Shown here in pieces: positions 1,279 to 38,528 of a stretch of DNA of 64,000 bases. Location of the stretch: NCBI GenBank assembly GCA_000002445.1, contig CP000068.1:128001-192000 (forward strand), read 5' to 3'. Position numbers and translations under genes: made by a program. Under the pieces are notes generated by a model, which was given only the letters and a program-made list of their open reading frames with translations, was not told where the DNA came from and made no database searches. The DNA is from Trypanosoma brucei (taxonomy: Eukaryota). Position 1 is the stretch's first letter; each line of letters opens with the position of its first letter.

Positions 1279-2460
1279 TCACTCCCTCAGGTAACTTGGT
1301 GCCTGTTTCCCATTGGTCTCCCCTGCGGCCACATCTTCTTTTGTTCCCGGCCGCCGCTTCCGCAAGAAAAAAATTGTGACAGCGACAATAATGAGGAAAA
1401 GGGGAACGACGGCGCACACCACGTAAATGGCAATACGTGTGCCGCTGGACAACTCGGAGGTTCCTCCTTCGGAAAGTTTATCATCATCCTCAATAACTCC
1501 GTCCTCTTTTTCCGCATCATAATCCTCACCCACTTGTTCCACTTTAAAGTCCTTACCGGGACCAGCGACGGGTTTCAGCGCGGCATCCACATGTTGCACC
1601 TGATCCTTCACTCGGTCAACGGCATTCTGCACCGCCTGACAGGCATCCACGACAGGTTTCATTGCATCAATCGCTTTTTTGTAATGCTCAATCCATCCGC
1701 TCTCATCAACGGTGCATGCAGTTGATGTGAAGTATCCGTCCATTCGACACGCGGTCTCGGCGTATTCATTACGGTGGGTGGGACTCGAAGGCTTTGGTTT
1801 AACATCATTCCACTTTTCCATGGCAGCTCCCATTCCGAGATGATCCAAACCTTTCGGTTGGCCTCTGCACTCGATTTCATAAATGCCTTCACCCACAGAT
1901 TTTGTAGACACACCCCGGCAGTTGTTGTTTTCGTTGTCACTATGCGCGTTACTGGGTTTTTTGGATATGGTCTGGCAATAACTCCTCAACACTTTTCTAA
2001 TGCCGGTGTCTTCCGATTCTCCCACTGCCTTCCTGGCGGGCTCCTTGACTTTTGATATGCCACTTTGAATAACCCCAAGTTGCTTCTCAACTTCCGTCTT
2101 GGCGCTGCCGACAACCGCTAGCGCCTCGTCAAGTTCTTTCTTTGCTTTTTCTACCGCCGCCAGGTCTTTTGATCCCTTCCCGTCTGACAGTTTCTCAAGT
2201 CCCTCGCGCTCCTTCTTTATTAAATCAGTTGCGTTATCGATGTACGTAATCTTGTGTTTCGTATGATTTACGATATTTTTTTCACCCTCCCCCACTGTAT
2301 TCGCAAGAGTGTACAAACTGCATAATATTTTCGCACTATTCGCATCGAAGTGTCCGTCTGCTGGTTGCTGGTTCTCGGCAGAGGCAAATGATACCAAAGT
2401 GAACCAAAACGGCACCAGGAGTTGAAGCGACATCTTCACACGCATGAAATACATATGCAT
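1279..2460 (-). CDS. ISG-like type I transmembrane surface glycoprotein (invariant-surface-glycoprotein-related family), paralog 1
   Basis: 393-aa ORF. N-terminal hydrophobic signal peptide (LQLLVPFWFTLVSFASA). Cys-containing extracellular domain with N-glycosylation sequons. A single C-terminal TM helix (IAIYVVCAVVPLFLIIVAVTIFFL) is followed by a short basic/Lys-containing tail (RKRRPGTKEDVAAGETNGKQ...). Shares conserved blocks with the two downstream paralogs (VLRSYCQT...NNNCRG vs VLTIYCNT...NNNCDDG). The ISG65/75-like assignment comes from architecture and memory, not a search. Confidence 0.55.
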   Translation of the reverse strand: MHMYFMRVKMSLQLLVPFWFTLVSFASAENQQPADGHFDANSAKILCSLYTLANTVGEGEKNIVNHTKHKITYIDNATDLIKKEREGLEKLSDGKGSKDLAAVEKAKKELDEALAVVGSAKTEVEKQLGVIQSGISKVKEPARKAVGESEDTGIRKVLRSYCQTISKKPSNAHSDNENNNCRGVSTKSVGEGIYEIECRGQPKGLDHLGMGAAMEKWNDVKPKPSSPTHRNEYAETACRMDGYFTSTACTVDESGWIEHYKKAIDAMKPVVDACQAVQNAVDRVKDQVQHVDAALKPVAGPGKDFKVEQVGEDYDAEKEDGVIEDDDKLSEGGTSELSSGTRIAIYVVCAVVPLFLIIVAVTIFFLRKRRPGTKEDVAAGETNGKQAPSYLRE

Positions 2461-2550
2461 ATATGAATATATGAAAATATGAACTGATATACGAATATAT
2501 TACAAACGAGGAGTGTAAAATCACTTCACTCTTGCCGAATTTTTTTCTTT

Positions 2551-2568
2551 AAAAAAAAAAAAAAAAAA
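2551..2568 (-). promoter_or_regulatory. Polypyrimidine tract (A18 on + strand) upstream of ISG-like paralog 1 - putative trans-splicing signal
   Basis: Homopolymer 90 nt upstream of the start at 2460 on the coding strand. A trypanosomatid trans-splice acceptor requires an upstream polyY tract. Confidence 0.4.
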
Positions 2569-3025
2569 GAGTGCTCCCCACTGCAGACGCAAGAAGACAA
2601 TATCCGATACTGTAGCTATTGTGTCTATTTTGATTCCTGTGTGTATGCAAAGAAAACAAAAATGGACAGTGGGACAAAATAATTTTCAATCCCAGCAAGT
2701 TGCCTACAGAGAAGTTACGGAGCTAAAGCAAACAGCAGTGCCAATAATGACGATAACAACAATAAATGAATTCAAATAACCGCTGGATAAAAGCGTCGTA
2801 TTCGCTCAATAACACTCTTTACATTACTTCAACATGTTGCTGCGTTTGGACTGGAAGTGCACTGAGGAGGGGGAAAAAAAAAAAGAAAGTAACGCATGCA
2901 ACGACTGCATCTTTTCCTTTTCAGTATTGATAAAGGCGAGGAAACGGGAAGGAGGAAGAGGCGGTGTTCGTGAATCAGCGAAACCGAATTGAATATCAAA
3001 AACAAGAAAAAAAAATGGAGAAACG

Positions 3026-4147
3026 CTAACAATCCTCTTCTTCCTCAGCGACTGCGGAAACGGGAGCGTAAGCACTCTGCACCTTCAAGCTGTTCTTTAT
3101 GCAGCGAAATAGCAAGAAACCGAGAACCAAAAAGAGTAACGAAGCAGTCACCACAATTATGCACGTGACAATGTCCTTCGATATTATTCCGTCTATAGAC
3201 GATTTCAATGACTTCTTCTCATGGTGCTTTCCAGTCGGGGTAGAGGATCGCACCAATTCCTTCAACGCATTCTTGTGCTTTTTCAACTCCTCAGCAGCGT
3301 TATGAACACTTTTTGTTGCCTCCTCCAACTTCTTAAGTTCATGTAGGGAAGAATTATAATCTCCCGTCCATTCCTCCTCAGGCACCGTACACGGACCCTC
3401 TGAAGCATATCCGTGACTTATGCAACTCGCATTCCATTGCTTGCTCGTATGTTTAACAGCTGCAAGCCCCGGTTTTGCACCATCCCAAGCGTTTATTGCA
3501 TTCGACATGGCCTCATATGTGACGTTAGCAGCAGTCACATTATCAGAACCTCCAATACTCTTACAATCAATTTTGAAGGCACCGGCTCCAGCAGCCGCAG
3601 CAATGCCATCGTCGCAGTTATTATTCACATTATGACTCTTCTTACCTTCCTTTGCACCAGTAATTGTTGTATTGCAGTATATCGTCAGTACCTTATTCAT
3701 TCCTTTGCTCTCAGAATCCCCCACTGCCTTTTTTGCGTGTTCCACGGCTTTGCTGGAGGCGTTTGTAATAATTTCATGTTGCTTCTTCACTTCTTCATCA
3801 GCTTTTGCGCTGGCGTTCAACACCGCATCGAGATGCCTCTTTATCGCATCCCCCACCGTTGCGTTCTTTGCTTTTATGGAGTCAACTAACTTACCAACCT
3901 TCTGCCGTGTCCTGTTCAAAGCAGAGGATGTGTTCTGAATAAACTTAATCTTCTGTGCTGTGGTATTTAAAATACCATCCGCAACACTTTGCATGGATCC
4001 CGCAAGGCCATACATGATGCATAATGCCCTAGCTCCTTCTTTATTAAATCTCTTGAGAGCAGGGCGCTGGCCTTTCTCAGCCGCAGCAAATGCAACGGCA
4101 GTAATTACTGATGCCAAAATGTAGGAGTGACGCAATCTTGCGCCCAT
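3026..4147 (-). CDS. ISG-like type I transmembrane surface glycoprotein, paralog 2
   Basis: 373-aa ORF. The first ~60 aa and a central ~150-aa block are identical to paralog 3. Own TM (IVTCIIVVTASLLFLVLGFLLF) and an acidic tail ending ...AVAEEEEDC. An identical 150-bp upstream region is shared with paralog 3. Confidence 0.55.
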   Translation of the reverse strand: MGARLRHSYILASVITAVAFAAAEKGQRPALKRFNKEGARALCIMYGLAGSMQSVADGILNTTAQKIKFIQNTSSALNRTRQKVGKLVDSIKAKNATVGDAIKRHLDAVLNASAKADEEVKKQHEIITNASSKAVEHAKKAVGDSESKGMNKVLTIYCNTTITGAKEGKKSHNVNNNCDDGIAAAAGAGAFKIDCKSIGGSDNVTAANVTYEAMSNAINAWDGAKPGLAAVKHTSKQWNASCISHGYASEGPCTVPEEEWTGDYNSSLHELKKLEEATKSVHNAAEELKKHKNALKELVRSSTPTGKHHEKKSLKSSIDGIISKDIVTCIIVVTASLLFLVLGFLLFRCIKNSLKVQSAYAPVSAVAEEEEDC

Positions 4148-4300
4148 ACCTTTACTACTAGTTTCAACGACACACTAAGCCTGAAATGCAATAACCACAA
4201 CACATCCACATTCATTTTTTTTATACGTACAAATACGTACAAATATATAAACAAGGGGAAAACATTGTATAAAACAGTAATTAGGAGTAACAAAGATGCA
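4148..4300. repeat. Duplicated 5' flank of ISG-like paralog 2 (copy A of a ~150-bp segment shared with 6298-6450)
   Basis: Sequence ctttactactagtttcaacgacacactaagcctgaaatgcaataaccacaacacatccacattcattttttttatacgtacaaatacg...aggagtaacaaagatgcaac is present at both loci, directly upstream of the identical start regions of paralogs 2 and 3. Confidence 0.8.
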
Positions 4301-5163
4301 ACCTAATGAAAGCAATGCACGAAATCAAACGATGCACCAAATGGCACTGTTGAAACACCGCTTTAATCATAAAGTCACGAACCGTATGTTTTCAGTGCAT
4401 GGTGACATGGTGAGTAGACAGGGGAACACTAAGCCAAATGAAAATTTTATGGATTACCACGACACCAACACTGGTCGCAACGGCCACGAAATGAGGAGAG
4501 GGATGCGGGGGGGAGGGGAAAAAAAAAAAAGAAAAAAGAAAAATTAGCAAAACAAAAGATAAAGGGAAGCAACGAAATGATCGAAGCTGGTTATAAGAAG
4601 GAATCCAAAAGAAATCCAACGAAAGAAAGAAATGAAACAAACCAAAACATCTGGCGTGAGTAACATGTTGTGTGAGCATGTCTGTCAGTTTACCCACTAA
4701 TATACAGTAATAAGAAAGATAACCCTCCAAATCCGCCTCAAGAACAAAATCCCTAAAGAAAGGAACGCCTCAATTCAAGTTGCGAAGACACAAAATTGTG
4801 TGAGTGTATTCACCGCACTGTAAACCCACTCCAACAAAAACAACGTAATTCTAACGAAATGACAACGAGTGGACAAAGCGTATAAAATAGGTATGAAAAT
4901 AACAGCAACTATAATCGTAAAGCATAGCAAGACCAACGCATTACGCATTACGAACCCAAGCACACTAACGACAACCTCGTCAAAACATACACATCCAACC
5001 GCTCCACCGCATCGGAAAGGAGAAAGGAGAAAGTCGGCAGACTCATGCACAGGTGACGGAAAATCTTCCGTTGCAAAGAAAAAAAATGAGAGAGAGCGAA
5101 GTCGAGCAAACGAAACACAAAAATAAACAAAAAAAGAACACAAACATTGTAACGGCACGACGA

Positions 5164-6297
5164 CTATATCATGAGTCGAGACCCTGACCTCTTGGTCCCA
5201 AAAGCGCTACCTCTGTTAAACCCGCGACGATTCATTAGCAAAAGTAATACACTAGTTGCGGGCACTATAGCCACAAAGCAAATGGCAACGGCAACAAGAT
5301 AACCAACAATGTCCGTGCCGCGATCCGAACTGTCGGGTGCCGGGACCAATGGTTCCGTAAGAGAATCATTACGATTTAAGTTGGAGGATCGCATCAGCCG
5401 CTGCACCACATCACCCGTCTGCGTTTTCATACCCTCAGCAGCGTTATGAACACTTTTTGTTGCCTCCTCCAACTTCTTAAGTTCATGTAGGGAAGAATTA
5501 TAATCTCCCGTCCATTCCTCCTCAGGCACCGTACACGGACCCTCTGAAGCATATCCGTGACTTATGCAACTCGCATTCCATTGCTTGCTCGTATGTTTAA
5601 CAGCTGCAAGCCCCGGTTTTGCACCATCCCAAGCGTTTATTGCATTCGACATGGCCTCATATGTGACGTTAGCAGCAGTCACATTATCAGAACCTCCAAT
5701 ACTCTTACAATCAATTCTGAAGGCACCGGCTCCAGCAGCCGCAGCAATGCCATCGTCGCAGTTATTATTCACATTATGACTCTTCTTACCTTCCTTTGCA
5801 CCAGTAATTGTTGTATTGCAGTATATCGTCAGTACCTTATTCATTCCTTTGCTCTCAGAATCCCCCACTGCCTTTTTTGCGTGTTCCACGGCTTTGCGGG
5901 AAGCGCCAGCAATAATTTCATGTTGCTCCTTTAGCTTTCTTTGGCCCCAGTCGAGAACTTCAAGTGCATCCTCTAGCTCCTTCTTTGCCCTGCTAAACTT
6001 TGCCGCATCTTCTATTGTCTCACCTTCCTCACGCTCCATCTGAACAACCTCCTCATGCCTAGCTTTAATCAGAACGAATGCTTCTTCAATATAAGCGATT
6101 TTATCGTGCATACTCTTTAAAATACCATCCGCAACACTTTGCATGGATCCCGCAAGGCCATACATGATGCATAATGCCCTAGCTCCTTCTTTATTAAATC
6201 TCTTGAGAGCAGGGCGCTGGCCTTTCTCAGCCGCAGCAAATGCAACGGCAGTAATTACTGATGCCAAAATGTAGGAGTGACGCAATCTTGCGCCCAT
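5164..6297 (-). CDS. ISG-like type I transmembrane surface glycoprotein, paralog 3
   Basis: 377-aa ORF. N-terminus MGARLRHSYILASVITAVAFAAAEKGQRPALKRFNKEGARALCIMYGLAGSMQSVADGIL is identical to paralog 2. The middle segment and C-terminus diverge (TM IVGYLVAVAICFVAIVPATSVLLLL, basic tail MNRRGFNRGSAFGTKRSGSRLMI). Confidence 0.55.
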   Translation of the reverse strand: MGARLRHSYILASVITAVAFAAAEKGQRPALKRFNKEGARALCIMYGLAGSMQSVADGILKSMHDKIAYIEEAFVLIKARHEEVVQMEREEGETIEDAAKFSRAKKELEDALEVLDWGQRKLKEQHEIIAGASRKAVEHAKKAVGDSESKGMNKVLTIYCNTTITGAKEGKKSHNVNNNCDDGIAAAAGAGAFRIDCKSIGGSDNVTAANVTYEAMSNAINAWDGAKPGLAAVKHTSKQWNASCISHGYASEGPCTVPEEEWTGDYNSSLHELKKLEEATKSVHNAAEGMKTQTGDVVQRLMRSSNLNRNDSLTEPLVPAPDSSDRGTDIVGYLVAVAICFVAIVPATSVLLLLMNRRGFNRGSAFGTKRSGSRLMI

Positions 6298-6450
6298 ACC
6301 TTTACTACTAGTTTCAACGACACACTAAGCCTGAAATGCAATAACCACAACACATCCACATTCATTTTTTTTATACGTACAAATACGTACAAATATATAA
6401 ACAAGGGGAAAACATTGTATAAAACAGTAATTAGGAGTAACAAAGATGCA
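6298..6450. repeat. Duplicated 5' flank of ISG-like paralog 3 (copy B)
   Basis: Identical to 4148-4300 by direct comparison. Continues into the 216-bp repeat listed below. Confidence 0.8.
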
Positions 6451-6649
6451 ACAGGTCACAAGTTGAACAAAACAACACGAGCACTAACATAGACTATGCA
6501 TAAATATATATAGATAAATAAAGATAAATATATTTATGCCGAGTGTATGATGTCACGGTAAATAGAGCATGGCATGAAATAAAACTATTACACCATAATG
6601 CTACTGACCTCATACCACTCACGTAACGCTCAGGAACAAAAAAAAGGGG
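6433..6649. repeat. ~216-bp direct repeat, copy 1 (downstream flank of trans-sialidase-like gene / upstream of ISG paralog 3)
   Basis: aggagtaacaaagatgcaacaggtcacaagttgaacaaaacaacacgagcactaacatagactatgcataaatatatatagataaataaag...cgctcaggaacaaaaaaaaggg recurs essentially identically at 9491-9706. Confidence 0.85.
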
Positions 6650-6962
6650 TTGGAACAAAAAAAGAAAATTATATGTATCGTGTCTCACATACAACAGAAC
6701 CACCTTAGATCATGTGATAAAGAGAAAAAAAAAATATAACCGTGCTCTCAGAGTGCCGGAAGCAGTCTACTGATGTCATTAACATCAGAAGAAAACCGGT
6801 AGCACCTGATATGTTATAGTTGACATCCTATTTGTAAAAATAAAATCGTTGAAACATACTCGCTTAAATTTACCGTCTTGAGTCTACCATTAAAGTTATT
6901 AAATGAAATTCATGTCTGCTCGTATTATCCTCCTCACGCTGAAATAACATGGATTATAGACC

Positions 6963-9317
6963 TCATTTCCTTACATCCAGTGTGTCATCAGTGATATCCA
7001 CAGTGTATGGGTTATATCCCGCCGGCATCTGTGGTAATCCCGCACCCGGTCGCATGGCAGCGTTTTGGGCTGCCCTCCGCTGCCGCAATACGAAGAACCC
7101 AACCAAACCAAGCACGATAAGTAACGCTGGGACCACTACAGCCGCAATCCATGCCAGGTTGCGACCACCCGATTTACCGCCTTGACCATCCCCATGATCT
7201 CCATTATCCTCATCCTCGTCTTCCAAGACAGCATCAAATGTACTTCTGTGCTTTACTGCAAGTAGCGCCTTCACATCAGCTACGCTTAGCTCATGGCTGT
7301 ACAAAAGCATGTTGAATACGGTAACACTCAGGTCGCCAGTTGCCTCACCCTTTCCGATCACTCGCTCGTTGGCTCCAACATATATCTCGTGTATCTCTGC
7401 CGACTGCGACAACGGCACAATACTGCCCTGACCATCCCCTACACGATTCCCGTCAATGTACGTATGGGCAACGCCGCCTCGCACGGTCAAGACAACCTGG
7501 TAGGTTTTCCCCTCTTCCAGAGCGAGTGTTTTGGCGCCAGCTGTCGTACCACTCAATTGGGTCCACGCCTTTTCGTCGTACCAGATACCCACGTCTGCAA
7601 TTAAGCCGGATTTGTTCCTCACGCCCACTCCAAGAAGTGGAGTGGGGTTCTTTGGTGCCTTATGGACGGCCACGCTCATCACGACTGTCAGCCCGTTGTC
7701 AATCAAATGGTACACTTTATTCTCATTTTTGCCAGATACGGGAAATACAACATGTGCGGCGCGTGTGCCCAAAGTGAAACCGGTGGTGACCCTCTTTACA
7801 GGGCCTTGTAGCGCACCATCCATGCCAAGGTATCCGTCACGCCAATGCGTGCGGTTGGCCACTTCAGACCAAAACCCAACGAGGCCCACCGTTGGGTCAA
7901 ACTTTGGCGCTGACGTGCTCTCCTCGCCCGTAGTGCCATAAAGCGCCATCACACTCCCGTCCACCTTCCTCCACAAACCCACCACTGCCTTCAGTTCATG
8001 CACACGGTCGGTGAGGTCGGTAAAGAAAATGCTTTTCAACTGGCTGAAACCCTCCTCATGCAGGGAGTACAGCCCACTCTCAGTGTGCAGGAGGGCGCTA
8101 AAAGATAACATGGATAAATGACCAGAGGAAATCGCCCCGAGGCAATGCGTCCGCTTGCTATCCGTCACCCAAAGGAGGAGCGGCCTCAATCCCGCATTCC
8201 CTGAATTGAAGAAGGCGCGGTAAGCAAATAGGATCACATCCGACCCATCCACCTTCATGTTCACGAAGTCACCTCGGTCGTCGTCATCGGAGTGATACTG
8301 GAAATTGGACAGTGCGTGCCTTTCACCCTCCGTAGCGTCAGTCCACGTCATCCCCACGTCTACGGATCGATACATCTTGTTTTTCGTCTGGTGTGCAACT
8401 ACAAGCAGCAATTCCTTCTTCCACACAAGCAGGCTGGGCTCCGTGCAATCGTCGATGTCCAGTTTAGCCGGGGTGAAGCTCCATGACTCACTCTCGTGCT
8501 TATAACGCGCAATAACGCATGTCTTAGCCCCACTCTCAGCGGACGCGACGAGAGGGAAAAGTATGGTGTCGCCCACAACAGCACCCTTTCCACCACTCTC
8601 GAAGAATTCCTTCCATGAGTGCTCCAATAGCGGCCTCTTGAACGTATCAGTCAGCGATGAAGGCTTATTCCACTTCACAACCTTGCCATCTTCCGCACCG
8701 CGGCCGCCGATAGTGCCCACGAAAAGCTTCACCTCCAAGTCGAACGCACCCTCTTGAGGTTCTACATCCTTCGCCTTGTTGCTGCTGAGTGAAAGAAGGA
8801 AAATCTTATCCTTCAGTACTATTGCCCTGGGGCCGTATTGAGCGTAGCGATGATCGGCCACCGGCTCATTCACGAAAACATTCTCAGTCTTCCATTTTTT
8901 CTCTGACATCCAACCCGCCGCCTGTGCGCTCTGGTGAGTCTCGCCAAGTGCAATAGTCTTTAGCCACACTCCGGCGTATCCGGCAGTCCACGCGTTATAT
9001 CGTGCTTCAGCGAGGGCAACAACACTCCCACCCACCGCCACGAGTGAATTACCTTCGAATAAACCGTGTTTCACATCATGACTCGAGTCACTGTGCGACA
9101 ACAAACTTTCTCTATTCCACGGTTTGAATAATTCCACCCTCCGCTTCTCAACTCCTGCAGGTTGGGAAGATGAGCCATTACTGCACACGGGGAGCAAAAG
9201 GACTGAAGCAACCAATAGTAGTAATGGTGTGTGCATCCTTTTGTAACTTTTCTCCCGTGTAGGGAAGTCATCTTTCATCCATACTCTCATGCTGGTACCT
9301 GGCTCCTGCAAATGCAC
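6963..9317 (-). CDS. Trans-sialidase/sialidase-superfamily protein, membrane-anchored, probably non-catalytic
   Basis: 784-aa ORF. The signal peptide probably starts at the internal Met (MHTPLLLLVASVLLLPVCSNG, near 9236). N-terminal RRVELFKPW resembles the TS N-terminus. One Asp-box SxDxGxTW (YRSVDVGMTWTD). C-terminal lectin-like domain carries the family motif VTVxNxxLYxxxL (VTVFNMLLYSHEL). C-terminal TM (IAAVVVPALLIVLGLVGFFVL) plus a 40-aa cytoplasmic tail. The FRIP motif position reads FEGN, i.e. the Arg is missing. Confidence 0.7.
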   Translation of the reverse strand: MHLQEPGTSMRVWMKDDFPTREKSYKRMHTPLLLLVASVLLLPVCSNGSSSQPAGVEKRRVELFKPWNRESLLSHSDSSHDVKHGLFEGNSLVAVGGSVVALAEARYNAWTAGYAGVWLKTIALGETHQSAQAAGWMSEKKWKTENVFVNEPVADHRYAQYGPRAIVLKDKIFLLSLSSNKAKDVEPQEGAFDLEVKLFVGTIGGRGAEDGKVVKWNKPSSLTDTFKRPLLEHSWKEFFESGGKGAVVGDTILFPLVASAESGAKTCVIARYKHESESWSFTPAKLDIDDCTEPSLLVWKKELLLVVAHQTKNKMYRSVDVGMTWTDATEGERHALSNFQYHSDDDDRGDFVNMKVDGSDVILFAYRAFFNSGNAGLRPLLLWVTDSKRTHCLGAISSGHLSMLSFSALLHTESGLYSLHEEGFSQLKSIFFTDLTDRVHELKAVVGLWRKVDGSVMALYGTTGEESTSAPKFDPTVGLVGFWSEVANRTHWRDGYLGMDGALQGPVKRVTTGFTLGTRAAHVVFPVSGKNENKVYHLIDNGLTVVMSVAVHKAPKNPTPLLGVGVRNKSGLIADVGIWYDEKAWTQLSGTTAGAKTLALEEGKTYQVVLTVRGGVAHTYIDGNRVGDGQGSIVPLSQSAEIHEIYVGANERVIGKGEATGDLSVTVFNMLLYSHELSVADVKALLAVKHRSTFDAVLEDEDEDNGDHGDGQGGKSGGRNLAWIAAVVVPALLIVLGLVGFFVLRQRRAAQNAAMRPGAGLPQMPAGYNPYTVDITDDTLDVRK

Positions 9318-9490
9318 GGGTTATATTCCGATAAAATTCCCCACGTTATCTTTTCACAATAATCGTCACTTGAGTCAGGCCTTCCGTCTATGAGGCGCGT
9401 TAGGCTCTGTATTATTTCACTGTAGGCGATCACTTGCTTTTCTTGTGTGAATGTCTGAATAAAAGTTAATTAAAAGCAAATGAAAATTAT

Positions 9491-9706
9491 AGGAGTAACA
9501 AAGATGCAACAGGTCACAAGTTGAACAAAACAACACGAGCACTAACATAGACTATGCATAAATATATATAGATAAATAAAGATAAATATATTTATGCCGA
9601 GTGTATGATGTCACGGTAAATAGAGCATGGCATGAAATAAAACTATTACACCATAATGCTACTGACCTCATACCACTCACGTAACGCTCAGGAACAAAAA
9701 AAAGGG
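9491..9706. repeat. ~216-bp direct repeat, copy 2 (upstream flank of trans-sialidase-like gene)
   Basis: Identical to 6433-6649 by direct comparison. Together the two copies bracket the trans-sialidase-like ORF. Confidence 0.85.
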
Positions 9707-11450: not shown

Positions 11451-12941
11451 TTAGTTCCAATTCCGCACGATCTTTCCGTCCCAGTTCAACTTCTCCCCCT
11501 TCTGCATGGCGTAGTAGCGATGCGTCTTCCAGCGACGCCAAGGTGAACCCGACTTACCCCAATGCGGGTTTGCTTCCCAGTATTTCTCAATACGCTCCTG
11601 CAACAGCGGCGTGAAGTGGCGGGCCAAACCCTGCACGGGCCATGCCGCTGCGGTTGCCAACGCACAGATGGTTCGCCCCTCCAGTTGTTTAGACACATCG
11701 AGCATGGTTCCAACCTCTTCCATACGTGCGTTACCGTGGACGAAGCGTTGCATCATCTTTTCGAGCCATGGGCTTCCTTCACGGCATGGCGTACACTGGC
11801 CACATGACTCATGGGCATAAAACATAGATAAGCGATGGATAGCCGCGATAAGGTCGGTAGATTTATCCATCACTATCACCGCTGCGGTGCCGAGGCCTGT
11901 TTGCGCCTCCTTCAGCGCATCGAAATCCATGAGGACGTTATCACAAATGCTCTTTGGAATAAGAGGACAAGAAGAGCCACCAGGAATGACAGCGAGGAGA
12001 TTGTCCCATCCACCCCGCACGCCACCAGCATGACGCTCAATGAGGTCCCGCAAAGGAATACTCATCTCCTCCTCTACTGTACAGGGCCGGTTGACGTGAC
12101 CGCAAATGCAGAACAGTTTTACCCCAGCATTGTTGCGTCGACCAAATGAATTAAACCACGACGGGCCGCGCCGGAGGATTGTTGGTGACACGGACACGGT
12201 CTCCACATTTGTCACAGTGGTGGGACACCCATAAAGACCGACATTGGCCGGAAAAGGGGGTTTAAGACGTGGCTTTCCTGGTCCACCTTCAATGCTTGAA
12301 ATCATCGCAGTTTCCTCCCCACAGATGTACGCTCCCGCACCGCAGTAAGTGTATAAATCAAAATCGTAACCGCTTCCGCATGCATTGCGGCCCAAGTAAC
12401 CCCGCGCATACGCCTCTTTAATTGCCTGATCCACAGCCCTCCACTCATTGTAAAACTCGCCTCGTATGTAAATGTAACCGTAACGCGCCCGCATGGCAAA
12501 ACCTGCAATGAGAGCCCCCTCTACCAATTTGTGTGGTTCATGCCGCATAATCTCTCGATCCTTACACGTCCCTGGTTCCGATTCATCTCCATTAACGACG
12601 ATGTAACTTGGGCGGCCGTCAGGTTTGGATTTTGGCATGAAGGACCATTTGAGTCCCGATGGGAAACCGGCTCCGCCGCGGCCACGGAGTCCACTGGCCT
12701 TAATTTCATTTATAACCCAGTCGTGTCCCTTCAACAGCAAATCGCGGGTACGATACCAATCCCCTCGTCGCTCAGCACTATCAATATCTGTGCCAAAATC
12801 CTGATAAAGATTAACAAAAATGCGGTCCTGATCCTTCAATCCACCGTGTACCCGCTGCTCCTGCTGAGTTGGTGGTGGTTGAGAAGCTGCTGCCTGAAGC
12901 AAAGACCCCGTAGCGGAAAGAAAACCCACACGCCGGAGCAT
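11451..12941 (-). CDS. NDUFV1: NADH dehydrogenase (ubiquinone) flavoprotein 1, 51-kDa subunit of respiratory complex I (NuoF homolog)
   Basis: 496-aa ORF. Contains the diagnostic NAD/FMN-binding region [19 protein letters not shown], and 4Fe-4S cysteine cluster residues near [13 protein letters not shown]-terminal presequence-like region. Confidence 0.85.
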
Positions 12942-17421: not shown

Positions 17422-19164
17422 TCACATAATCTCAACAAGTTTTGTCTTCCGTGCCGCCAAAACAATACCGGACCGCTTGGAACGCCATAATGTTGCGTAA
17501 CACACAAGCGCTGATAATGTCATGGAAACACTCATCACAACACACACAAACGCATAACTCCCATTATTACGAAGTTGAATAGTTGCTTGCATGGGAGGTG
17601 CCACAAAACCACCCACCACACCTGCGAGAAATACAGCACCAAAATAAAAACCCAAATTAGGTCCATACAAATGCGTAGCGATAAGAGTTGGCATCACGGC
17701 AAACATACCCGCCATGCAGAAACCAATGATGCAAAGCAACAACGCAAAGGCAACGTAACTGCGGCCAAGGGCGAGAAGGCCACAACCGATACCACCAACA
17801 GTAGCACAGAAAACATATGCAAATTCAGCAGTAACTAATGAGGCGAGCCAACCAACAAGTACGGAACCAACAACTTGAAAGACACCATAAAAAGTGAAGA
17901 GGGTGGCGGCAACATCAGTTGGAATGGGCGGTACACCTGCATAAACAGTGCCTGGTTTACCCATAGACGAAATGTAAGGCACGGCTGCGTAAATGAGCGA
18001 GTAAAAAGCCCAACTGTATATGAACCAGCAAAGAAAGTTACCCATGAAAGGGAGAGTAAACATAGAGAGGAATAGTTCCCATGGTGTGAGCTTGTGGGTG
18101 TGGAGACTGCGTATTACCTGTGGTTCGTCTGCATCCATACTTGTATCCATATCAACATCAATAGCAGATGCAAAGGTGTTGTTCCTTTGACTTTGTTCAG
18201 TAACGTCCAAACCCTCACCATCATTCCCATTTTGCTGATTCGTGCCCACACCCCTCCCGTTAGGTGGAACCTTTGAGGTGTTGGTATGGCTGCCATTTTT
18301 CCTGCCCATTTCCCTCACGTCTTCTTTACCTTCATTGTGTCCATTATTCGCTGCTCCTTCTCCCCCCACAGTTGCCGGTTCATTACTTCTTCTGACCAAA
18401 CTTCCATTACCGGATTTATTTCCTTCCCGGGTTTCATCATCAGCGCTGCTGTCGTCTCTTTTGGGTTCACGGCGGCGAGCGGAAAGGGCGGTTGCGAGCA
18501 CTCCAATCGCACAAAATATCGACATAAGTTGAAAAGCCTTACGCCAGCCATATGCAACAACCCATTTCCCTGCTAATGGTGGAATAATGGCACTTCCAAT
18601 ACCTCCACCAGCAAAGTTAATTCCCATAGCCAGTCCCTGATAACGATTGAACCAAGAACTAGTTGCAGCAGCCCCAGGTGATAACATACATGCCGTACCA
18701 ATAGATGCAAAAAGGCAGTAAGTAAAAGTTACAACATAAATGTTCGCGGCGAGGGTTGAACTGATCCACAAACCAGTGAAGAGCAAAATGGTGGAAAGCG
18801 CCATCATGAACCGCGGCGGGAGCCGATCGACACAAAATCCTGCGAGAACACCAAAGGCAGGTGAAAGCCCCAACGAAACGGAATTTCCAAGACTAATTGC
18901 CGTTATGGAGGGAAACCCAAGTGACGGATCATTGTGCATATCCTCTGAGAAAATGGAATAACTGTTGTCAATACCATATGACATCAGTTGCATCAACAAC
19001 CCCGAAAGGGCCACGAGGTAACCGATTGGGTGGTCGGCGGGTTTACGGGTGAAACTTGGAAGCATAACTTTTTGCTTTTCTTCTTCTTTTCCGTATATAT
19101 TTAATATATATATATATATATACTTTCTGCTTATGCTCGTATTGGTATTCCGTTTCTCACCCAC
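17422..19164 (-). CDS. Major facilitator superfamily (MFS) transporter
   Basis: 580-aa ORF with ~12 predicted hydrophobic helices in two 6-helix halves. These are split by a long hydrophilic, N/G-rich central loop. The true start is likely the internal Met MLPSFTRKPADHP; the preceding residues are low-complexity. Confidence 0.7.
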   Translation of the reverse strand: MGEKRNTNTSISRKYIYIYILNIYGKEEEKQKVMLPSFTRKPADHPIGYLVALSGLLMQLMSYGIDNSYSIFSEDMHNDPSLGFPSITAISLGNSVSLGLSPAFGVLAGFCVDRLPPRFMMALSTILLFTGLWISSTLAANIYVVTFTYCLFASIGTACMLSPGAAATSSWFNRYQGLAMGINFAGGGIGSAIIPPLAGKWVVAYGWRKAFQLMSIFCAIGVLATALSARRREPKRDDSSADDETREGNKSGNGSLVRRSNEPATVGGEGAANNGHNEGKEDVREMGRKNGSHTNTSKVPPNGRGVGTNQQNGNDGEGLDVTEQSQRNNTFASAIDVDMDTSMDADEPQVIRSLHTHKLTPWELFLSMFTLPFMGNFLCWFIYSWAFYSLIYAAVPYISSMGKPGTVYAGVPPIPTDVAATLFTFYGVFQVVGSVLVGWLASLVTAEFAYVFCATVGGIGCGLLALGRSYVAFALLLCIIGFCMAGMFAVMPTLIATHLYGPNLGFYFGAVFLAGVVGGFVAPPMQATIQLRNNGSYAFVCVVMSVSMTLSALVCYATLWRSKRSGIVLAARKTKLVEIM

Positions 19165-27823: not shown

Positions 27824-30800
27824 CTATAGCTGAACTGAATACTTGTCGGTCTGCGGAGTTGGGTTGTTCTTGTACAACGCCGAAAGCCTTGGATCGTCCG
27901 CGAGCTTCTGCGCTAACTTGGCGTACCTCTCGCTTGCACGATCAATATGCTTCACGAGTAGCTCGTCTAGTGTTTTCATGCGCCATGTGGCCTCCTTGCA
28001 GTATTGGGCAAACTCCTTCGCATCCCGTGCAACTTCACCACTGGTGGTTACAGCAACTGCAGCACTTGTGCTTGCAAGGGCATTCGCAGTGATTGTGCAG
28101 GATGCACCCATGACGCTTGGTATCCCTGTAACTGCCTCCCCTAATGCACCGCCACCTGTAGCAGCAAGGGCCACAGAATCTGACATGTCCTTCTGCTCTG
28201 CAGCTCCAAGTACTCCCTGGATGCTGCACGTCTCCACCCCTGAAGCCTTCACGGTGGACTCCACACCCGCCACAGCCGCATCAACGTTGCTCTGATAGTT
28301 GGCCTGACGACGAGTGAGCTCCTCCCTTTCCTCATCCATCTGTTTTTGTATAATACGACCGCGATGGATAAGGCGCTCCTTCAACTCACGTAGGGCCTCA
28401 TCTCGTACTCGGCGGGCTTGGTCCATGGTGAGGGCAACATTCATGTAGTCACCACTGAATGTGGTGGGGAGGTCAAGCTTCGCGATGTATGGCGCAAGGT
28501 AATCGCAGCGTGCCTCCTCACGCAGAGCCTCTTCAGCAAGTCGGCGTCTACGCTCCGCTTCAGTCTCACGAGGACGGTTGCGAAGCGTGTCAAAGACGGA
28601 CACAACAGCGGGAACGCGGCGCTGTTTTTCGTTTGCCAGAGCGACACGCTTTGAGGGACAAAGTCCGGGCAGCAAATACTCTTGATTCTGCGCCTGCGAT
28701 TTCTGCTCGGCGACGGGTGTCAGTTGAGCACCAGCGAGGCCTCCCAGTTCGACCGATGACCGCTTAGCAGCTTCCGCTTCGTCAGGACCTGCAACCGGAC
28801 CCGATGGCTCACGTGTGGACTCCACAATGGCATTGCATTCCGCCAACGAGGCCCGTACACGCCCTTGACACATCGTGACCCACCACCGCAGTCGGTTGCG
28901 CTCATTACACTGTTCCATATCCGATGGGGGTGTCGCGTTTGGCATCATAACGATGATAGATGGCAACGTACCTGAAATGCTCCCTTTCGGCCCCGCCACG
29001 GCGCTGAGAAGGCATTCCTCACCAGGGTCAGTTTTGGGGTACATGCGATAGGGACGGATGATACTCCCCGGCCGGTAATGGAAATAAACCCACATTTCAC
29101 CACCCTCAGACAGCGACCCCACACTGCCAGTAGACGGACCTGCGCACACCGGTGACAATGCAGCCGACGCGACAAGCTGTGGATGCATTGTGCCTGTAGC
29201 GGCACGTGCAGCGGCTACCGCAGCAGGGCGCACAAAGACGTATTTGGCCACATCGTCGTCAGGGGGGATGGTCTCATTGCGATGATACTTCTCACTCATT
29301 CGGATGGGTTCCGCACGTTGCGTGTCATCCGCACCCCGCACGCTCCCCTTAGTAGAGGGGGAACTTCCAACTTGTTGCGAATTGGTGTGGGACAAGTTGT
29401 ATCCCATGTTGAGTGCAGCCACATTATCGAAGGTGGCACTTCGGTACCATAACCGGTCATCGCGCCCTCTGTAAAACTCCTTCACCTTGCGAAGGGCGCG
29501 ACTCTCGTAGAAAAACTCCTGTCTCCGCCACAAGCCATCGTTACGGGCATCCCAGTAAAAGGTCATAGTTCGCTGCACACCTGGCTCGTACGTAAGTAAC
29601 CGCAGCCCCCCTACTGAAGTCTGCAACATTCTGCCACGTTCGAACCACTCTTGCATCAGGCGGAAGTTACCACTTTGTACCACAACATCAACCAACGGGA
29701 TGAGCTGGCTATTGGAATTCGACACGGTCCGTTCCCTCATAAAGGCACCACTGCTAAAGCTCCGGTGCCGCACAAAACTCCGACGCTTACCCACATTCGT
29801 CTCCCGAAATTCGTCGTCTAATGCGCTCGTCACTATATTTCTCCTCAAACCCGCCCTTTGCTGAGCCCCGCTCGAGTAATCGTAATCCGTGTCGTACGGT
29901 TCTTTTCCCTCTCCCTCCGCTGCCGGAAGTGCAACTAAACCTTCACCTCCAGACGCAGCGGCAGCACCACTCCTAAAGTCACTCACACTGTTCGTCCGCC
30001 TCATGAATGCGGATGCCGTGGGGTACACCGACCGGCGGCGCAGTTTATCCGCACGATGCTCAAAAAGCAGATGTATTTGTGCCTGACTGGGATATTGCGT
30101 ATCCGGCAAATAGACCTCAAGCACACGATGGTCAGGCATTAGATACGCGGCGTAGCGAAACACATCTGCATTGACATAGCGAGTGAATTTCATACCACCT
30201 GGATAACGACTTTCATACTGGGCCCGGTTCAATGTTAATTCTTCCACCCACGAAGCACAACAAAAGTGGACCGCACGGTCTCGCGTAGTTTGCATGAGAT
30301 GCGTCAGTCCTCCTGCCAAAGTGGAAAATCCCCCGCTAAATGTGCTACCGGGATGCTGTGCTGGAGATCCCTCATCATTGTAGCGCCGCCTCATGCCTGC
30401 CGAGTTACCCAACCCTCGGCTTCCATATACTGCTGATGGGCTAGCGCTTAAAACGCCGCCTCCGCTTCCAGGAGTGGCCCCCAAGTGCACTTGGCCCCCA
30501 AGTGTACTGAGGGGAGTGCCAACGAAATTATGCGAAATGTTGCGCTCGTCCTCAACGTCCAGTTCAAAGAGAACCGCTTCCCATTGAGATGCATCCTGAA
30601 GATCAGGCACCAGTGAACTGACAGCGGCGTCGGGGGTGAGGTTGACGAAATAGTTGTCACCATTGAAAACACCCTCAACACCCGTGTAAAAGCTATCGGC
30701 GTCACCCGGCGCGATGAGGTCGCCCCGGGAAGGTTCGACGAATACGGGCTCACGTACGCTCTTGCGCCCACCAGGGAGAACAAGTACCCAACTGTGAAGC

Positions 30801-32044
30801 CGTCGAACAGGTGGGAAGTTGACTGACTCGCCTTTTGCAGGTCCCTTAACGGCGTCATCCCCCCCTATTACAGATGCGGCATCAGCATTTCCACACCTTG
30901 CCGGGTTGTTGAAAGCATTGAAGCTGGTGTTAGGACCACAAAGGGGGCTCGTAGCACCCACCACATTATTAGCCAAGGGGCTACAGAGGCTAACGCTGTT
31001 CGCGTAGCTCTCGCTGGCCCCCTGAACCCTTGATCCCGCAAAGGATGTGTTACTTCTCGTGTCTTTGTCGTCGTCCTGCTGATGGTGGTACTGGGAGTAC
31101 ATATCAATCTCATCAGCAGGGCGGAGCACCAGGCGGTCCTTTACAAGTGCTGCATACTCCGCATCAACCATGTCGCTGCCATCATCATCGGCATCAGAGT
31201 CCACATAACAGCAGTAGTCATCCGTCACGGGAGCCTTTGTATTGGCATTTTCCTCCCTTCCACCGGTGGTGCCAACCACGTTGCTGCAATACGTACTGTC
31301 TTTGTTGCTGGTCCTGCGCTTGCTTTTGCTCTTTCCGCTAGTCGAAAGCTCCCCATATTCATCTGTCCATTCCCGTTGTGAACTGTCATTCTCGCACACG
31401 GCGCGTTCAGCGTAGCCCACCACCACGTAGGCGTTGTACCCCACTCCCACAAGCAACGAAGTGAGAAGTATGCTCAACTCGAAGCAATTGCCAATCTGCC
31501 ACTGTAGCGTCGTGGCTGGGGAAACCACCACTTCAGGAAGCCTTTCCGTGTCTTCAAGTATCTCATACCGCATATACCCCGCAAGGAACCTCGCACACGA
31601 ACCCACATCAAACAATTCATCAAAGGGAAAAATGGTGGGCCGAATGAAGGTGCATATCATCTTTCGGGTGCGACACTCATTCAACGGGGCAAGAAGCTGC
31701 GGCGCACGCTTAGGAAAATACTCATGAAAGTGAGATTGGAACCTCCTAGTAGCTTTGAAGATGCTCTCCTCTGCCGGACTAATCTCCGTGTAGGAGGGGG
31801 GAAAACCCTCCTTGCGAAGCCAGTGGGTGAGACGCTCCGCTCTCGTGGCCTCATAAGGAGCTGGTGACAAGGTTGCGGGCCCGGGTACCTTCTCTTCTCC
31901 TCCTTCTTCAGCATCAGTGGGAGTCGCAGTTCCCAAACCAACCTTTGCTGTGTTGGCGACGGCGCCGCCTCTTCCTGGTGAAGTCCCGGGGACGCTTGCG
32001 GTCTTTCCGCCGATGCGGCGTATTGGTGGTAACATCAACTTCAA
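27824..32044 (-). CDS. Large hypothetical protein (1406 aa) with transglutaminase-like (TGc) core and C-terminal coiled coil; possibly flagellar/axonemal (DRC7/CCDC135-like)
   Basis: The segment QIGNCFELSILLTSLLVGVGYNAYVVVGYA matches the TGc consensus G-x-C-x-E/D-x-A-x-L...G-x-x-A-R/Y-x-V-x-G-Y. Long low-complexity stretches. A C-terminal charged heptad-like region (RRRLAEEALREEAR..., RELKERLIHRGRIIQKQMDEEREELTRRQ). The DRC7 link is inference only. Confidence 0.45.
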   Translation of the reverse strand: MKLMLPPIRRIGGKTASVPGTSPGRGGAVANTAKVGLGTATPTDAEEGGEEKVPGPATLSPAPYEATRAERLTHWLRKEGFPPSYTEISPAEESIFKATRRFQSHFHEYFPKRAPQLLAPLNECRTRKMICTFIRPTIFPFDELFDVGSCARFLAGYMRYEILEDTERLPEVVVSPATTLQWQIGNCFELSILLTSLLVGVGYNAYVVVGYAERAVCENDSSQREWTDEYGELSTSGKSKSKRRTSNKDSTYCSNVVGTTGGREENANTKAPVTDDYCCYVDSDADDDGSDMVDAEYAALVKDRLVLRPADEIDMYSQYHHQQDDDKDTRSNTSFAGSRVQGASESYANSVSLCSPLANNVVGATSPLCGPNTSFNAFNNPARCGNADAASVIGGDDAVKGPAKGESVNFPPVRRLHSWVLVLPGGRKSVREPVFVEPSRGDLIAPGDADSFYTGVEGVFNGDNYFVNLTPDAAVSSLVPDLQDASQWEAVLFELDVEDERNISHNFVGTPLSTLGGQVHLGATPGSGGGVLSASPSAVYGSRGLGNSAGMRRRYNDEGSPAQHPGSTFSGGFSTLAGGLTHLMQTTRDRAVHFCCASWVEELTLNRAQYESRYPGGMKFTRYVNADVFRYAAYLMPDHRVLEVYLPDTQYPSQAQIHLLFEHRADKLRRRSVYPTASAFMRRTNSVSDFRSGAAAASGGEGLVALPAAEGEGKEPYDTDYDYSSGAQQRAGLRRNIVTSALDDEFRETNVGKRRSFVRHRSFSSGAFMRERTVSNSNSQLIPLVDVVVQSGNFRLMQEWFERGRMLQTSVGGLRLLTYEPGVQRTMTFYWDARNDGLWRRQEFFYESRALRKVKEFYRGRDDRLWYRSATFDNVAALNMGYNLSHTNSQQVGSSPSTKGSVRGADDTQRAEPIRMSEKYHRNETIPPDDDVAKYVFVRPAAVAAARAATGTMHPQLVASAALSPVCAGPSTGSVGSLSEGGEMWVYFHYRPGSIIRPYRMYPKTDPGEECLLSAVAGPKGSISGTLPSIIVMMPNATPPSDMEQCNERNRLRWWVTMCQGRVRASLAECNAIVESTREPSGPVAGPDEAEAAKRSSVELGGLAGAQLTPVAEQKSQAQNQEYLLPGLCPSKRVALANEKQRRVPAVVSVFDTLRNRPRETEAERRRRLAEEALREEARCDYLAPYIAKLDLPTTFSGDYMNVALTMDQARRVRDEALRELKERLIHRGRIIQKQMDEEREELTRRQANYQSNVDAAVAGVESTVKASGVETCSIQGVLGAAEQKDMSDSVALAATGGGALGEAVTGIPSVMGASCTITANALASTSAAVAVTTSGEVARDAKEFAQYCKEATWRMKTLDELLVKHIDRASERYAKLAQKLADDPRLSALYKNNPTPQTDKYSVQL

Positions 32045-36932: not shown

Positions 36933-38528
36933 CTACCTAAATCCGCTACTATTATTATTATTATCATCAGAGGTACTATCACTACTGCTATTGTTGTCAA
37001 CGCTATTGCTATCAACGGTACCACCAACACCTGAGCCCAAACTGCTATTCATAATGTTCGGGTCTGCGCCGACTGCTGGCACCTTCGCATCACCAACATT
37101 ACCACCACAACTATCGCTGACGGCACGGAATACAGAAAGTGCCTGAGCTGTAAATGCAGCGGGGTCACTAACCGGCAGCCCTGAACCTCCACCACCAAGC
37201 ACCACAGTATTGGACCGCCGCGCAAGCTCCCCAAACTTCTCAATATATTCCTCCGCCACCCGTAGCGCCACCGCGTCACGGAAACTTTGGGGATTTGGTG
37301 ATGCATTAAATGCATTGGCAACCGTCCCAACACTGCGACCGACCGCATCCGCCTTTAATGCCATCGCCGCCGCCTCCGCCTCTGCGCGAAGAACCGTGGC
37401 ATATTTTTGTGCCCGTGCAGCAAGTCGCTGCGCTCGCCGGAGTCCTCCCGCCCGATTAATCCCCGCCTGCGCCTCACCTTCACTCTGCAATATCAGTTGT
37501 CGCTTACGTCGTTCCGCATCGGCCTGCAGGTCCATAGAGCGCCGAACCAACTCACTGACAGTGATGTCGCGTATCTCATAGCGTTTGCATTCGATTCCCC
37601 AATCTGCTGCTTCACTCCGAAGCACCTCAACGATGTTCTTGTTGAGTGACGCCCTCTCGCGAAACAGAGTGTCAAGGTCAAGTCGTCCAATCTCGCTCCG
37701 CATTGTTGTCTGTGCTAGATTGAGCAAATTGTAAATGGGATTCTCAATGTTGTAGCTGGCCTTGCACGTGTCCACGATGCGAAGGAAGAGCACACCATCA
37801 ATCTCAACCATAACATTGTCACATGTGATGGCTGATTGGTTTGGTATCTCGATACCTTGCTCTTTTACGCTGTACGCGTACCGTATCTTATCCACAAACG
37901 GGATCACAAACCACCAACCGGGGTCTAATGTGCGGTGGTACCGCCCGAGACGCTCCACAACATATTGACGACCCTGTGGGACAATGTTCAAAATAGTGTT
38001 ACGCGGCACTCGCTCAATGAAAGAGGAGGGATGAACAGGGGAACGGAAGGGGCGGGACACAAACGGCAGTCGACCCGAACCAACAGGACCGCCACCACCA
38101 GCGCCACCACCAGCGTTCCCACCGCTACCTGCAGCAACGGCGTTGCTGTTATTGTCGATAGAATAGTTGGGATCACCACTTCCAGCATAATATCCGCCTC
38201 CCATGTAATTCGAGGCAGCACCGCCGTATGGAGACGGAGGCTGGGAGTAGTTGTAACCGCCTGCACCGGCACTACCGGAGTGGTACATTCTGAAGGTGCC
38301 ACCCAACGAAGTGGCACTAACCCCGCACCCGCTTGACACCGACACGCCACATCTGCGAAGTCCGCTACCGACGAGGCTGATGGCTCTCACACCAGCGGCG
38401 GTACAATCAAATGAAGCGGTGGTGCCTCGGGGAAGAGTAGGCGGTGGAGTGTAAACAATACATGTTGGGGCAACATGCGTGCCGGGGAGGGAAAGCGTTC
38501 GAGACGAGTGCACCAAACTACGTAACAT
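36933..38528 (-). CDS. Stomatin-like protein (SPFH/band-7 domain), probably mitochondrial SLP-2-type
   Basis: 531-aa ORF. The central SPFH domain (VPQGRQYVVERLGRYHRTLDPGWWFVIPFVDKIRYAYSVKEQ...DNVMVEIDGVLFLRIVD...WGIECKRYEIRDI) is followed by a coiled coil (AERRKRQLILQSEGEAQAGINRA). Long G/S/N-rich N- and C-terminal extensions. Confidence 0.75.
   Translation of the reverse strand: MLRSLVHSSRTLSLPGTHVAPTCIVYTPPPTLPRGTTASFDCTAAGVRAISLVGSGLRRCGVSVSSGCGVSATSLGGTFRMYHSGSAGAGGYNYSQPPSPYGGAASNYMGGGYYAGSGDPNYSIDNNSNAVAAGSGGNAGGGAGGGGPVGSGRLPFVSRPFRSPVHPSSFIERVPRNTILNIVPQGRQYVVERLGRYHRTLDPGWWFVIPFVDKIRYAYSVKEQGIEIPNQSAITCDNVMVEIDGVLFLRIVDTCKASYNIENPIYNLLNLAQTTMRSEIGRLDLDTLFRERASLNKNIVEVLRSEAADWGIECKRYEIRDITVSELVRRSMDLQADAERRKRQLILQSEGEAQAGINRAGGLRRAQRLAARAQKYATVLRAEAEAAAMALKADAVGRSVGTVANAFNASPNPQSFRDAVALRVAEEYIEKFGELARRSNTVVLGGGGSGLPVSDPAAFTAQALSVFRAVSDSCGGNVGDAKVPAVGADPNIMNSSLGSGVGGTVDSNSVDNNSSSDSTSDDNNNNSSGFR

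Follow-up and report, generated by a model that had tools for sequence, protein, structure and literature searches.

TbTS-like E of Trypanosoma brucei, a probable catalytically dead trans-sialidase-family protein with a predicted transmembrane helix and a conserved tail

TbTS-like E (Tb927.5.440) is encoded on the minus strand of a 64,000-nucleotide stretch of Trypanosoma brucei chromosome 5 (contig CP000068.1, positions 128,001 to 192,000; here, the window). Our analysis indicates, with a probability of about 0.8, that its product is a catalytically dead type I membrane glycoprotein of the trans-sialidase family, acting as a non-enzymatic binding protein. In the proposed layout, a signal peptide would be followed by the former catalytic propeller, a linker helix, a concanavalin A (ConA)-like lectin-type domain, a flexible acidic stalk, a transmembrane (TM) helix, and a tail of 40 amino acids (aa). 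TS-like E keeps the trans-sialidase fold and is under purifying selection. From its residues we infer that it neither cleaves nor transfers sialic acid, and it is predicted to be a type I membrane protein. The gene, with its loss of catalytic residues, has already been named and published. Only the anchor switch, that is, the TM helix with a conserved tail, is an under-described aspect of this protein.

The coding sequence occupies positions 6963 to 9290 (minus strand). It begins with the ATG at 9290 (MRVWMKDDF...), which is the annotated start, ends with the TGA stop at 6963-6965, and encodes 775 aa, to which protein numbering refers throughout. The original prediction had placed an open reading frame (ORF) at 6963-9317 of the minus strand. 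That ORF exists, but its end at 9317 is an artefact, because the ORF caller used table 11 (the bacterial code) and accepted a GTG start. The translation is identical at 775/775 residues to the T. b. brucei TREU927 protein XP_844718.1/AAZ11159.1/Q57VW9, and a T. b. equiperdum trans-sialidase is 99% identical to it. In addition, the four primers listed for TbTS-like E (Tb927.5.440) in the supplement of PMC3855035 all match the ORF flanks (9280-9298, 9308-9324, 6948-6967, and 6921-6938). Thus, the exact protein match and the primer matches identify the ORF as the named gene. By identity, orthology, and a conserved locus, it belongs to the E/Like1 lineage of the African inactive "TS-like" group. 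The inactivity of TS-like E was inferred earlier, and the residues of its T. congolense orthologue have been tabulated one by one (PMC3855035, PMC3795030).

Membership in the trans-sialidase superfamily, proposed at first from short motifs, was borne out by profile and structure searches. Pfam TS_C (E = 1.1e-51) and BNR_3 (E = 1.8e-33) both matched the protein, and crystal chains of T. cruzi trans-sialidase (TcTS) matched at E = 2e-60. Among solved structures, the best HMMER matches were TcTS and T. rangeli sialidase, at E values of about 1e-60 over aa 50-677. RRVELFKPW, one of the two motifs first noticed, lies at aa 50-58. The other, the C-terminal VTV motif, was located by alignment and motif scan at aa 656-668 (7287-7325, minus strand) as VTVFNMLLYSHEL, a form of the family signature VTVxNVxLYNR in which the last three positions are degenerate.

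An AlphaFold2 model built on a 32-sequence alignment reached a mean predicted local distance difference test score (pLDDT) of 75 and a predicted TM-score (pTM) of 0.76. The propeller was well predicted and was followed by a linker helix, a beta-sandwich lectin-type domain, and a helix at aa 712-744; the stalk and tail were of low confidence. When the model was compared with the PDB by Foldseek, TcTS and T. rangeli sialidase stood alone at the top (TcTS, E = 3e-40; target-normalised TM-score, 0.78), with bacterial sialidases far behind. The six-bladed beta-propeller, the former catalytic domain, covers aa 50-425 (8016-9143, minus strand). It contains the BNR_3 match, aligns from TcTS residue 6, and has pLDDT values mostly above 80. 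The inter-domain alpha-helix at aa 427-451 (7938-8012, minus strand; DSSP on the AlphaFold model) is the counterpart of the TcTS linker helix. The ConA-like lectin-type domain, which contains the TS_C match, spans aa 466-680 (7251-7895, minus strand). Two N-glycosylation sequons of the ectodomain, N479 and N559, lie in this domain and are kept in the T. congolense orthologue. An acidic, Gly-rich stalk (aa 681-711; 7158-7250, minus strand) follows, with pLDDT below 50 and 32% identity to T. congolense, with indels.

For the mapping of catalytic residues, the TcTS sequence was rebuilt from the HMMER alignment; in a numbering check, 18/18 literature residues carried the expected letter. Equivalences were read from two MAFFT alignments (7 and 24 sequences) and from HMMER. 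TS-like E keeps two of the seven core catalytic residues of TcTS and loses five. In the Arg triad, E79 stands at the position of R35, A299 at that of R245, and L368 at that of R314. The nucleophile Y342 is replaced by F397 (8100-8102, minus strand; HMMER and MAFFT), and the acid/base D59 has no counterpart, being matched by a gap, Thr, or Ala depending on the alignment. The residues kept are E284, equivalent to E230 (the partner of Tyr342), and E412, equivalent to E357 (the partner of R35). E79 is part of FEGN (aa 78-81; 9048-9059, minus strand), which had been described as replacing FRIP; in both HMMER and MAFFT it does align to FRLP of TcTS. D96 has become Gly, W120 has become Val, and the W312 position is also lost.

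The Asp boxes agree with the first description as well. A regex scan found one canonical box, SVDVGMTW (aa 309-316; 8343-8366, minus strand), which aligns to SSDMGNTW of TcTS, and the two other TcTS positions are degenerate in TS-like E (SEKKWKT and HESESWSF). The FRIP motif with its Arg triad, the Tyr342 nucleophile, and Asp59, which are the marks of an active GH33-type enzyme, are missing from TS-like E. Neither an intact triad nor the nucleophile turned up elsewhere in the alignments, and the proposal of a likely pseudo-enzyme therefore stands.

The membrane topology was predicted from hydrophobicity. A Kyte-Doolittle scan of TS-like E gave exactly two hydrophobic segments, at aa 21-36 (the signal-peptide core) and aa 712-735. 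The N-terminal region (aa 1-40; 9171-9290, minus strand) consists of a charged extension of 18 to 20 aa and then the hydrophobic core TPLLLLVASVLLLPVC. The charged extension MRVWMKDDFPTREKSYKR (aa 1-18; 9237-9290, minus strand) precedes a second Met and a textbook signal peptide, MHTPLLLLVASVLLLPVCS; the corresponding extension of the T. congolense orthologue is about 29 aa long and has no Met at the equivalent position. The second segment is a 24-aa helix, LAWIAAVVVPALLIVLGLVGFFVL (7086-7157, minus strand), with a Kyte-Doolittle maximum of 2.92, and it falls within the model helix at aa 712-744. It is followed by RQRR as a stop-transfer signal and by a mostly hydrophilic remainder with a Pro/Gly-rich stretch and the conserved end NPY..TDDTLDVRK; the whole predicted cytoplasmic tail measures 40 aa (6966-7085, minus strand). 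The hydrophobic segment thus ends 40 residues before the C-terminus, as the original prediction of a TM helix and tail had it. A glycosylphosphatidylinositol (GPI) signal must sit at the C-terminus itself, and the position of the segment therefore points to a type I topology rather than to a GPI signal.

To place this C-terminus within the family, 153 family sequences were classified, which are essentially the matches obtained when 1.84 billion cluster representatives were searched exhaustively with HMMER. A GPI-type C-terminal hydrophobic stretch (e.g., LLLLLGLWGFAAL) was found in 79 of them. A hydrophobic segment with a tail of at least 30 aa was found only in the E/Like1 proteins of T. brucei and T. 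congolense. One further sequence, P0035 (712 aa, from a 2.6-kb contig of a public sequencing run), has a hydrophobic segment and then a 21-aa basic extension (…LLGLLGLSALYWAMRRENLISYRKNCLLRRLSSGG); this may represent another case of anchor switching, or it may be an artefact of frameshift or read-through. When the tail was searched by tblastn against the window and two loci, only the T. brucei-group gene itself and the T. congolense orthologue were recovered (E = 2.5e-5). Weak tblastn matches of the TM part to ISG-like TM segments were rejected as composition only, because composition correction was off. A search for a tail donor with the 74-aa stalk, TM helix, and tail against 5.8 billion proteins gave no match; as even the parent protein went unrecovered, this result says nothing about a donor. 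No discussion of the TM domain or tail of TS-like E or other TS-like proteins was found in the literature searched, to which the original naming papers did not belong.

The syntenic orthologue in T. congolense is TconTS-Like1 (TcIL3000.0.25120; P0002), which is 54% identical to TS-like E. Its residues E86, A306, N375, N291, F404, R104, G160, A183, L184, and V255 are those of Table 2 of PMC3855035, which identifies the orthologue and cross-validates the alignment. TconTS-Like1 keeps none of the seven core catalytic residues, and its predicted layout is the same (signal peptide, ectodomain, TM helix, and tail). Identity varies by region: 56% in the propeller, 64% in the lectin-type domain, 32% in the stalk, 33% in the TM helix, and 50% in the tail, so that the lectin-type domain is the most conserved region. 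The tail ends in NPYTVDITDDTLDVRK in T. brucei and in NPYFMNATDDTLEVSK in T. congolense, with the terminal motif NPY...TDDTL[D/E]VxK common to both.

T. b. brucei, T. b. gambiense, T. b. equiperdum, and T. congolense all have an uninterrupted reading frame. Between TS-like E and its T. b. equiperdum counterpart there are 8 synonymous and 9 non-synonymous differences, with an omega of 0.34. In the comparison with T. congolense, the proportions of non-synonymous (pN) and synonymous (pS) differences are 0.29 and 0.76; since synonymous saturation precludes a dN/dS estimate here, we report only that pN is far below pS. These figures, together with the regional conservation, indicate that TS-like E is not a drifting pseudogene.

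The origin of this protein was approached with a neighbour-joining tree (200 bootstraps), and its placement in that tree agrees with published trees. TS-like E and TconTS-Like1 form a pair in 200/200 bootstraps. The pair joins two T. cruzi proteins (194/200) and then T. conorhini and T. rangeli proteins (193/200), while active TcTS and a fully active-looking T. grayi protein lie outside this dead clade. The T. conorhini, T. rangeli, and T. cruzi proteins are the nearest non-African relatives (29-33% identity). In these relatives, F-x-G-[N/H]-S-L replaces FRIP, most have Phe in place of Tyr342 and Gly in place of D96, and every one has a GPI-type signal at its end. Ten further family representatives that were looked up contributed nothing more; apart from contigs of public sequencing runs, they comprised one protein each of T. 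carassii and T. theileri. Because the nearest relatives are dead but of the GPI type, we infer that catalysis was lost anciently, before the African/American trypanosome split, and that the TM helix and tail arose later as an innovation of the lineage from which T. brucei and T. congolense descend. In T. brucei, the helix (…VVVPALLIVLGLVGFFVL) is similar to the core of the family GPI signal (…VVPLLLLLGLWAFAAL), and 0/500 shuffles reached its mean match to the 79 GPI tails. This resemblance suggests that the TM helix may have come from a C-terminal extension of an ancestral GPI signal.

As reported previously, TS-like E is expressed mainly in procyclic forms, which live in the tsetse midgut. 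Its mRNA is procyclic-enriched and is bound and stabilised by ZC3H20 via a 615-nucleotide 3' untranslated region (3'UTR) (Ling et al., PMC3121479; bioRxiv 10.1101/646547). Tb927.5.440 also tops a list of genes translationally up-regulated in procyclics, just above the active T. brucei trans-sialidase TbTS (PMC3973304), and TS-like E was recovered in cullin-A immunoprecipitates (PMC12816148). The literature searched thus covers its mRNA regulation and lists it as a divergent or inactive family member. In the window, the 3' intergenic region including the 3'UTR lies at 6298-6962 (minus strand). It holds a UAUUUUUUUUU run at 6725-6736 (minus strand), within the 3'UTR, that matches the UAUUUUUU element noted by Ling et al. 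for procyclic-enriched transcripts.

We propose that TS-like E would act as a non-enzymatic binding protein in the insect stage. Sialic-acid binding in the old pocket is unlikely, because the carboxylate-binding Arg residues and Asp96 are gone (R35E, R245A, D96G, and W120V). Lectin activity, if there is any, would more plausibly sit in the better-conserved C-terminal domain, by analogy with active enzymes: TconTS1 and TconTS2 have lectin domains that bind oligomannose and galactosyl glycans (PMC4608562). The conserved tail may contact cytoplasmic sorting, endocytic, turnover, or ubiquitylation machinery directly. A GPI anchor cannot make such direct contact.

Several observations weigh against this interpretation. 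One residue away from the R314 position stands Arg369, which T. congolense shares. A gap in the HMMER alignment places Arg369 on R314, whereas the ungapped register from the conserved LxLWxTD strand (MAFFT) puts Leu368 there; this disagreement makes the third arm of the triad ambiguous. At 8 of the 16 comparable positions of the old pocket, T. brucei and T. congolense have the same residue, whereas identity over the domain averages 56%. Conservation of the pocket is thus no higher than that of the domain, and there is no sign that the old active site has been conserved as a new binding site. At the other end of the protein, the tail contains no exact canonical sorting motif and has low model confidence. 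For the T. congolense helix, 237/500 shuffles reached the observed match to GPI tails, which amounts to no resemblance, and the C-terminal extension of a GPI signal is therefore only a suggestion. TS-like E is also listed in a nuclear-envelope/endoplasmic reticulum (ER)-associated cohort (PMC7889174), and at steady state it may therefore reside elsewhere than on the cell surface. Finally, the literature searched holds no enzymatic, glycan-binding, anchoring, or localisation experiment on TS-like E.

Among the rival explanations, an intracellular role is unlikely, though less so than the others. TS-like E might be a lectin or cargo receptor of the ER or early secretory pathway, comparable to ERGIC-53 and VIP36, rather than a surface protein. 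Its type I layout, ConA-like domain, and short conserved tail would suit such a role, as would the binding of high-mannose N-glycans by homologous lectin domains (PMC4608562) and the cohort listing just mentioned. However, the T. brucei protein ends in DVRK and the T. congolense protein in EVSK, with neither a KKxx nor a KxKxx retrieval motif, and glycan binding by this lectin-type domain is a prediction by analogy. Membership in the cohort may also reflect fraction contamination or a tagging artefact, since a tag at either end would hide the signal peptide or the C-terminal motif. We consider it very unlikely that TS-like E is a decaying relic, an enzyme remnant drifting to a pseudogene. Most catalytic residues are gone, two of the three Asp boxes are degenerate, and TS-like genes have been called "degenerated and probably not functional" (PMC3795030). 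Nevertheless, the intact frame in four taxa, the omega within T. brucei, the low pN relative to pS, and the conservation of the lectin-type domain and tail end are at odds with decay, and the gene is regulated, translated (PMC3121479, PMC3973304), and recovered in pulldowns (PMC12816148).

The topology itself can be read differently. If the hydrophobic segment were a GPI signal after all, the tail would be cleaved off together with it in the ER. In T. brucei, the helix LLIVLGLVGFFVL does resemble the family GPI-signal core LLLLLGLWGFAVL beyond all shuffles, and the small residues KSGGRN precede it as they would at an omega site. However, the hydrophobic stretch is followed by a 40-aa hydrophilic extension, and such C-terminal extensions block GPI addition in model proteins. 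RQRR after the helix fits the positive-inside rule, and the extreme C-terminal motif is kept between species whose synonymous sites are saturated, which would be surprising if the peptide were thrown away; a GPI anchor is therefore highly improbable. Retained activity, as a sialidase, a trans-sialidase, or another glycosidase working through substitutes such as Arg369, Glu284, and Glu412, is the least credible reading. The propeller fold is intact, the E230 and E357 equivalents are kept, and an Arg stands next to the R314 position. However, Phe stands at the nucleophile position, nothing corresponds to the acid/base Asp, the positive charge of R35 has given way to the negative charge of Glu, and old-pocket positions are not preferentially conserved. 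With 0/7 core residues in the T. congolense orthologue, the two proteins share no catalytic set.

A dead, TM-anchored binding protein, the reading that we favour, can be compared with known systems. TconTS-Like1 is closest to it, with FEGN, a Phe at the nucleophile position, a TM helix, and a tail ending in NPY..TDDTLEVSK. It differs in keeping none of the seven core residues (two in TS-like E), in having Asn as the counterpart of Glu284, in a tail that is 8 aa shorter, and in a TM helix unlike the family GPI signal. The natural inactive Tyr342His trans-sialidase of T. cruzi is the classic example of a trans-sialidase that has lost catalysis and works as a lectin. It differs from the active enzyme essentially at the nucleophile, keeps the Arg triad, binds sialic acid and galactose, and is GPI-anchored. 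TS-like E is likewise non-catalytic and has the same fold (Foldseek match to PDB 3pjq, E = 4e-39), whereas it lacks the Arg triad and is predicted to be TM-anchored.

The active enzymes (TcTS, PDB 1ms3 and 1s0i; T. rangeli sialidase, 1n1s; TbTS; and TconTS1-4) share the two-domain fold, the linker helix, and the VTV motif with TS-like E. In contrast, at about 26% identity to it, they have all seven catalytic residues, FRIP, and three Asp boxes, and they are GPI-anchored or shed. The dead relatives in T. cruzi (PBJ75403.1 and KAF8291697.1), T. conorhini (P0003), and T. rangeli (RNF00768.1) form the nearest clade and have F-x-G-[N/H]-S-L, but they end in an LLLLLGLWGxxAL-type GPI signal and have no tail. 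As a functional analogy only, with no sequence relationship claimed, the type I L-type lectin cargo receptors ERGIC-53 and VIP36 combine a lumenal ConA-like fold, one TM helix, and a short conserved cytoplasmic tail for sorting. Unlike them, TS-like E has neither a dilysine nor an FF motif, and it carries an extra propeller.

Directly downstream of TS-like E, three tandem ISG65/75-family genes lie at 1279-6297 (minus strand). These genes, Tb927.5.410,.420, and.430, encode 393, 373, and 377 aa, much shorter than ISG65 or ISG75. Blocks of 300 nucleotides are shared between.420 and.430 at 98-100% identity, which marks these two as recent duplicates. The T. congolense orthologue likewise has an ISG-family gene directly downstream, and the two species thus share the pairing of a TS-like E gene with an ISG-like one. 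The TS-like E gene is bracketed by two identical copies of a 217-nucleotide direct repeat, detected by repeat comparison: a downstream copy at 6432-6648, in the 3' intergenic region or 3'UTR, and an upstream copy at 9490-9706, about 200 nucleotides upstream of the ATG. The same bracketing repeat is found in T. b. equiperdum, with 95% identity between copies, and is absent from the T. congolense locus compared. It may be a reused intergenic processing region or the trace of a past insertion or duplication.

In the window, all but one of the 18 ORFs that reach 200 aa or more (17 of 18) run on the minus strand, which is what a single polycistronic transcription unit would give. Other genes identified encode an NADH dehydrogenase 51-kDa subunit (11451-12941), an MFS transporter (17422-19164), a DRC7-like protein (27824-32044), and a Band-7/SPFH protein (36933-38528). 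The GC content of the window falls to 32-36% at about 14-22 kb and 32-36 kb.

A bolder extension, which we hold as doubtful, is that the TS-like E lineage, as one of very few in the family, swapped its GPI anchor for a TM helix and a conserved tail and thereby turned a dead enzyme into a receptor wired to the cell interior. If this were true, TS-like E might, for example, bind glycans as a cargo or sorting receptor for procyclic surface proteins that bear oligomannose, or it might sense glycans of the host or the tsetse fly, with its tail leading to its endocytosis or degradation. Other members of the family have a GPI anchor or are secreted; this lineage alone has a conserved cytoplasmic tail, and it is maintained by selection and strongly translated in the tsetse-midgut stage beside TbTS. 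TS-like E therefore offers a tractable case for the role of dead trans-sialidases and for the way in which a GPI signal may evolve into a TM anchor.

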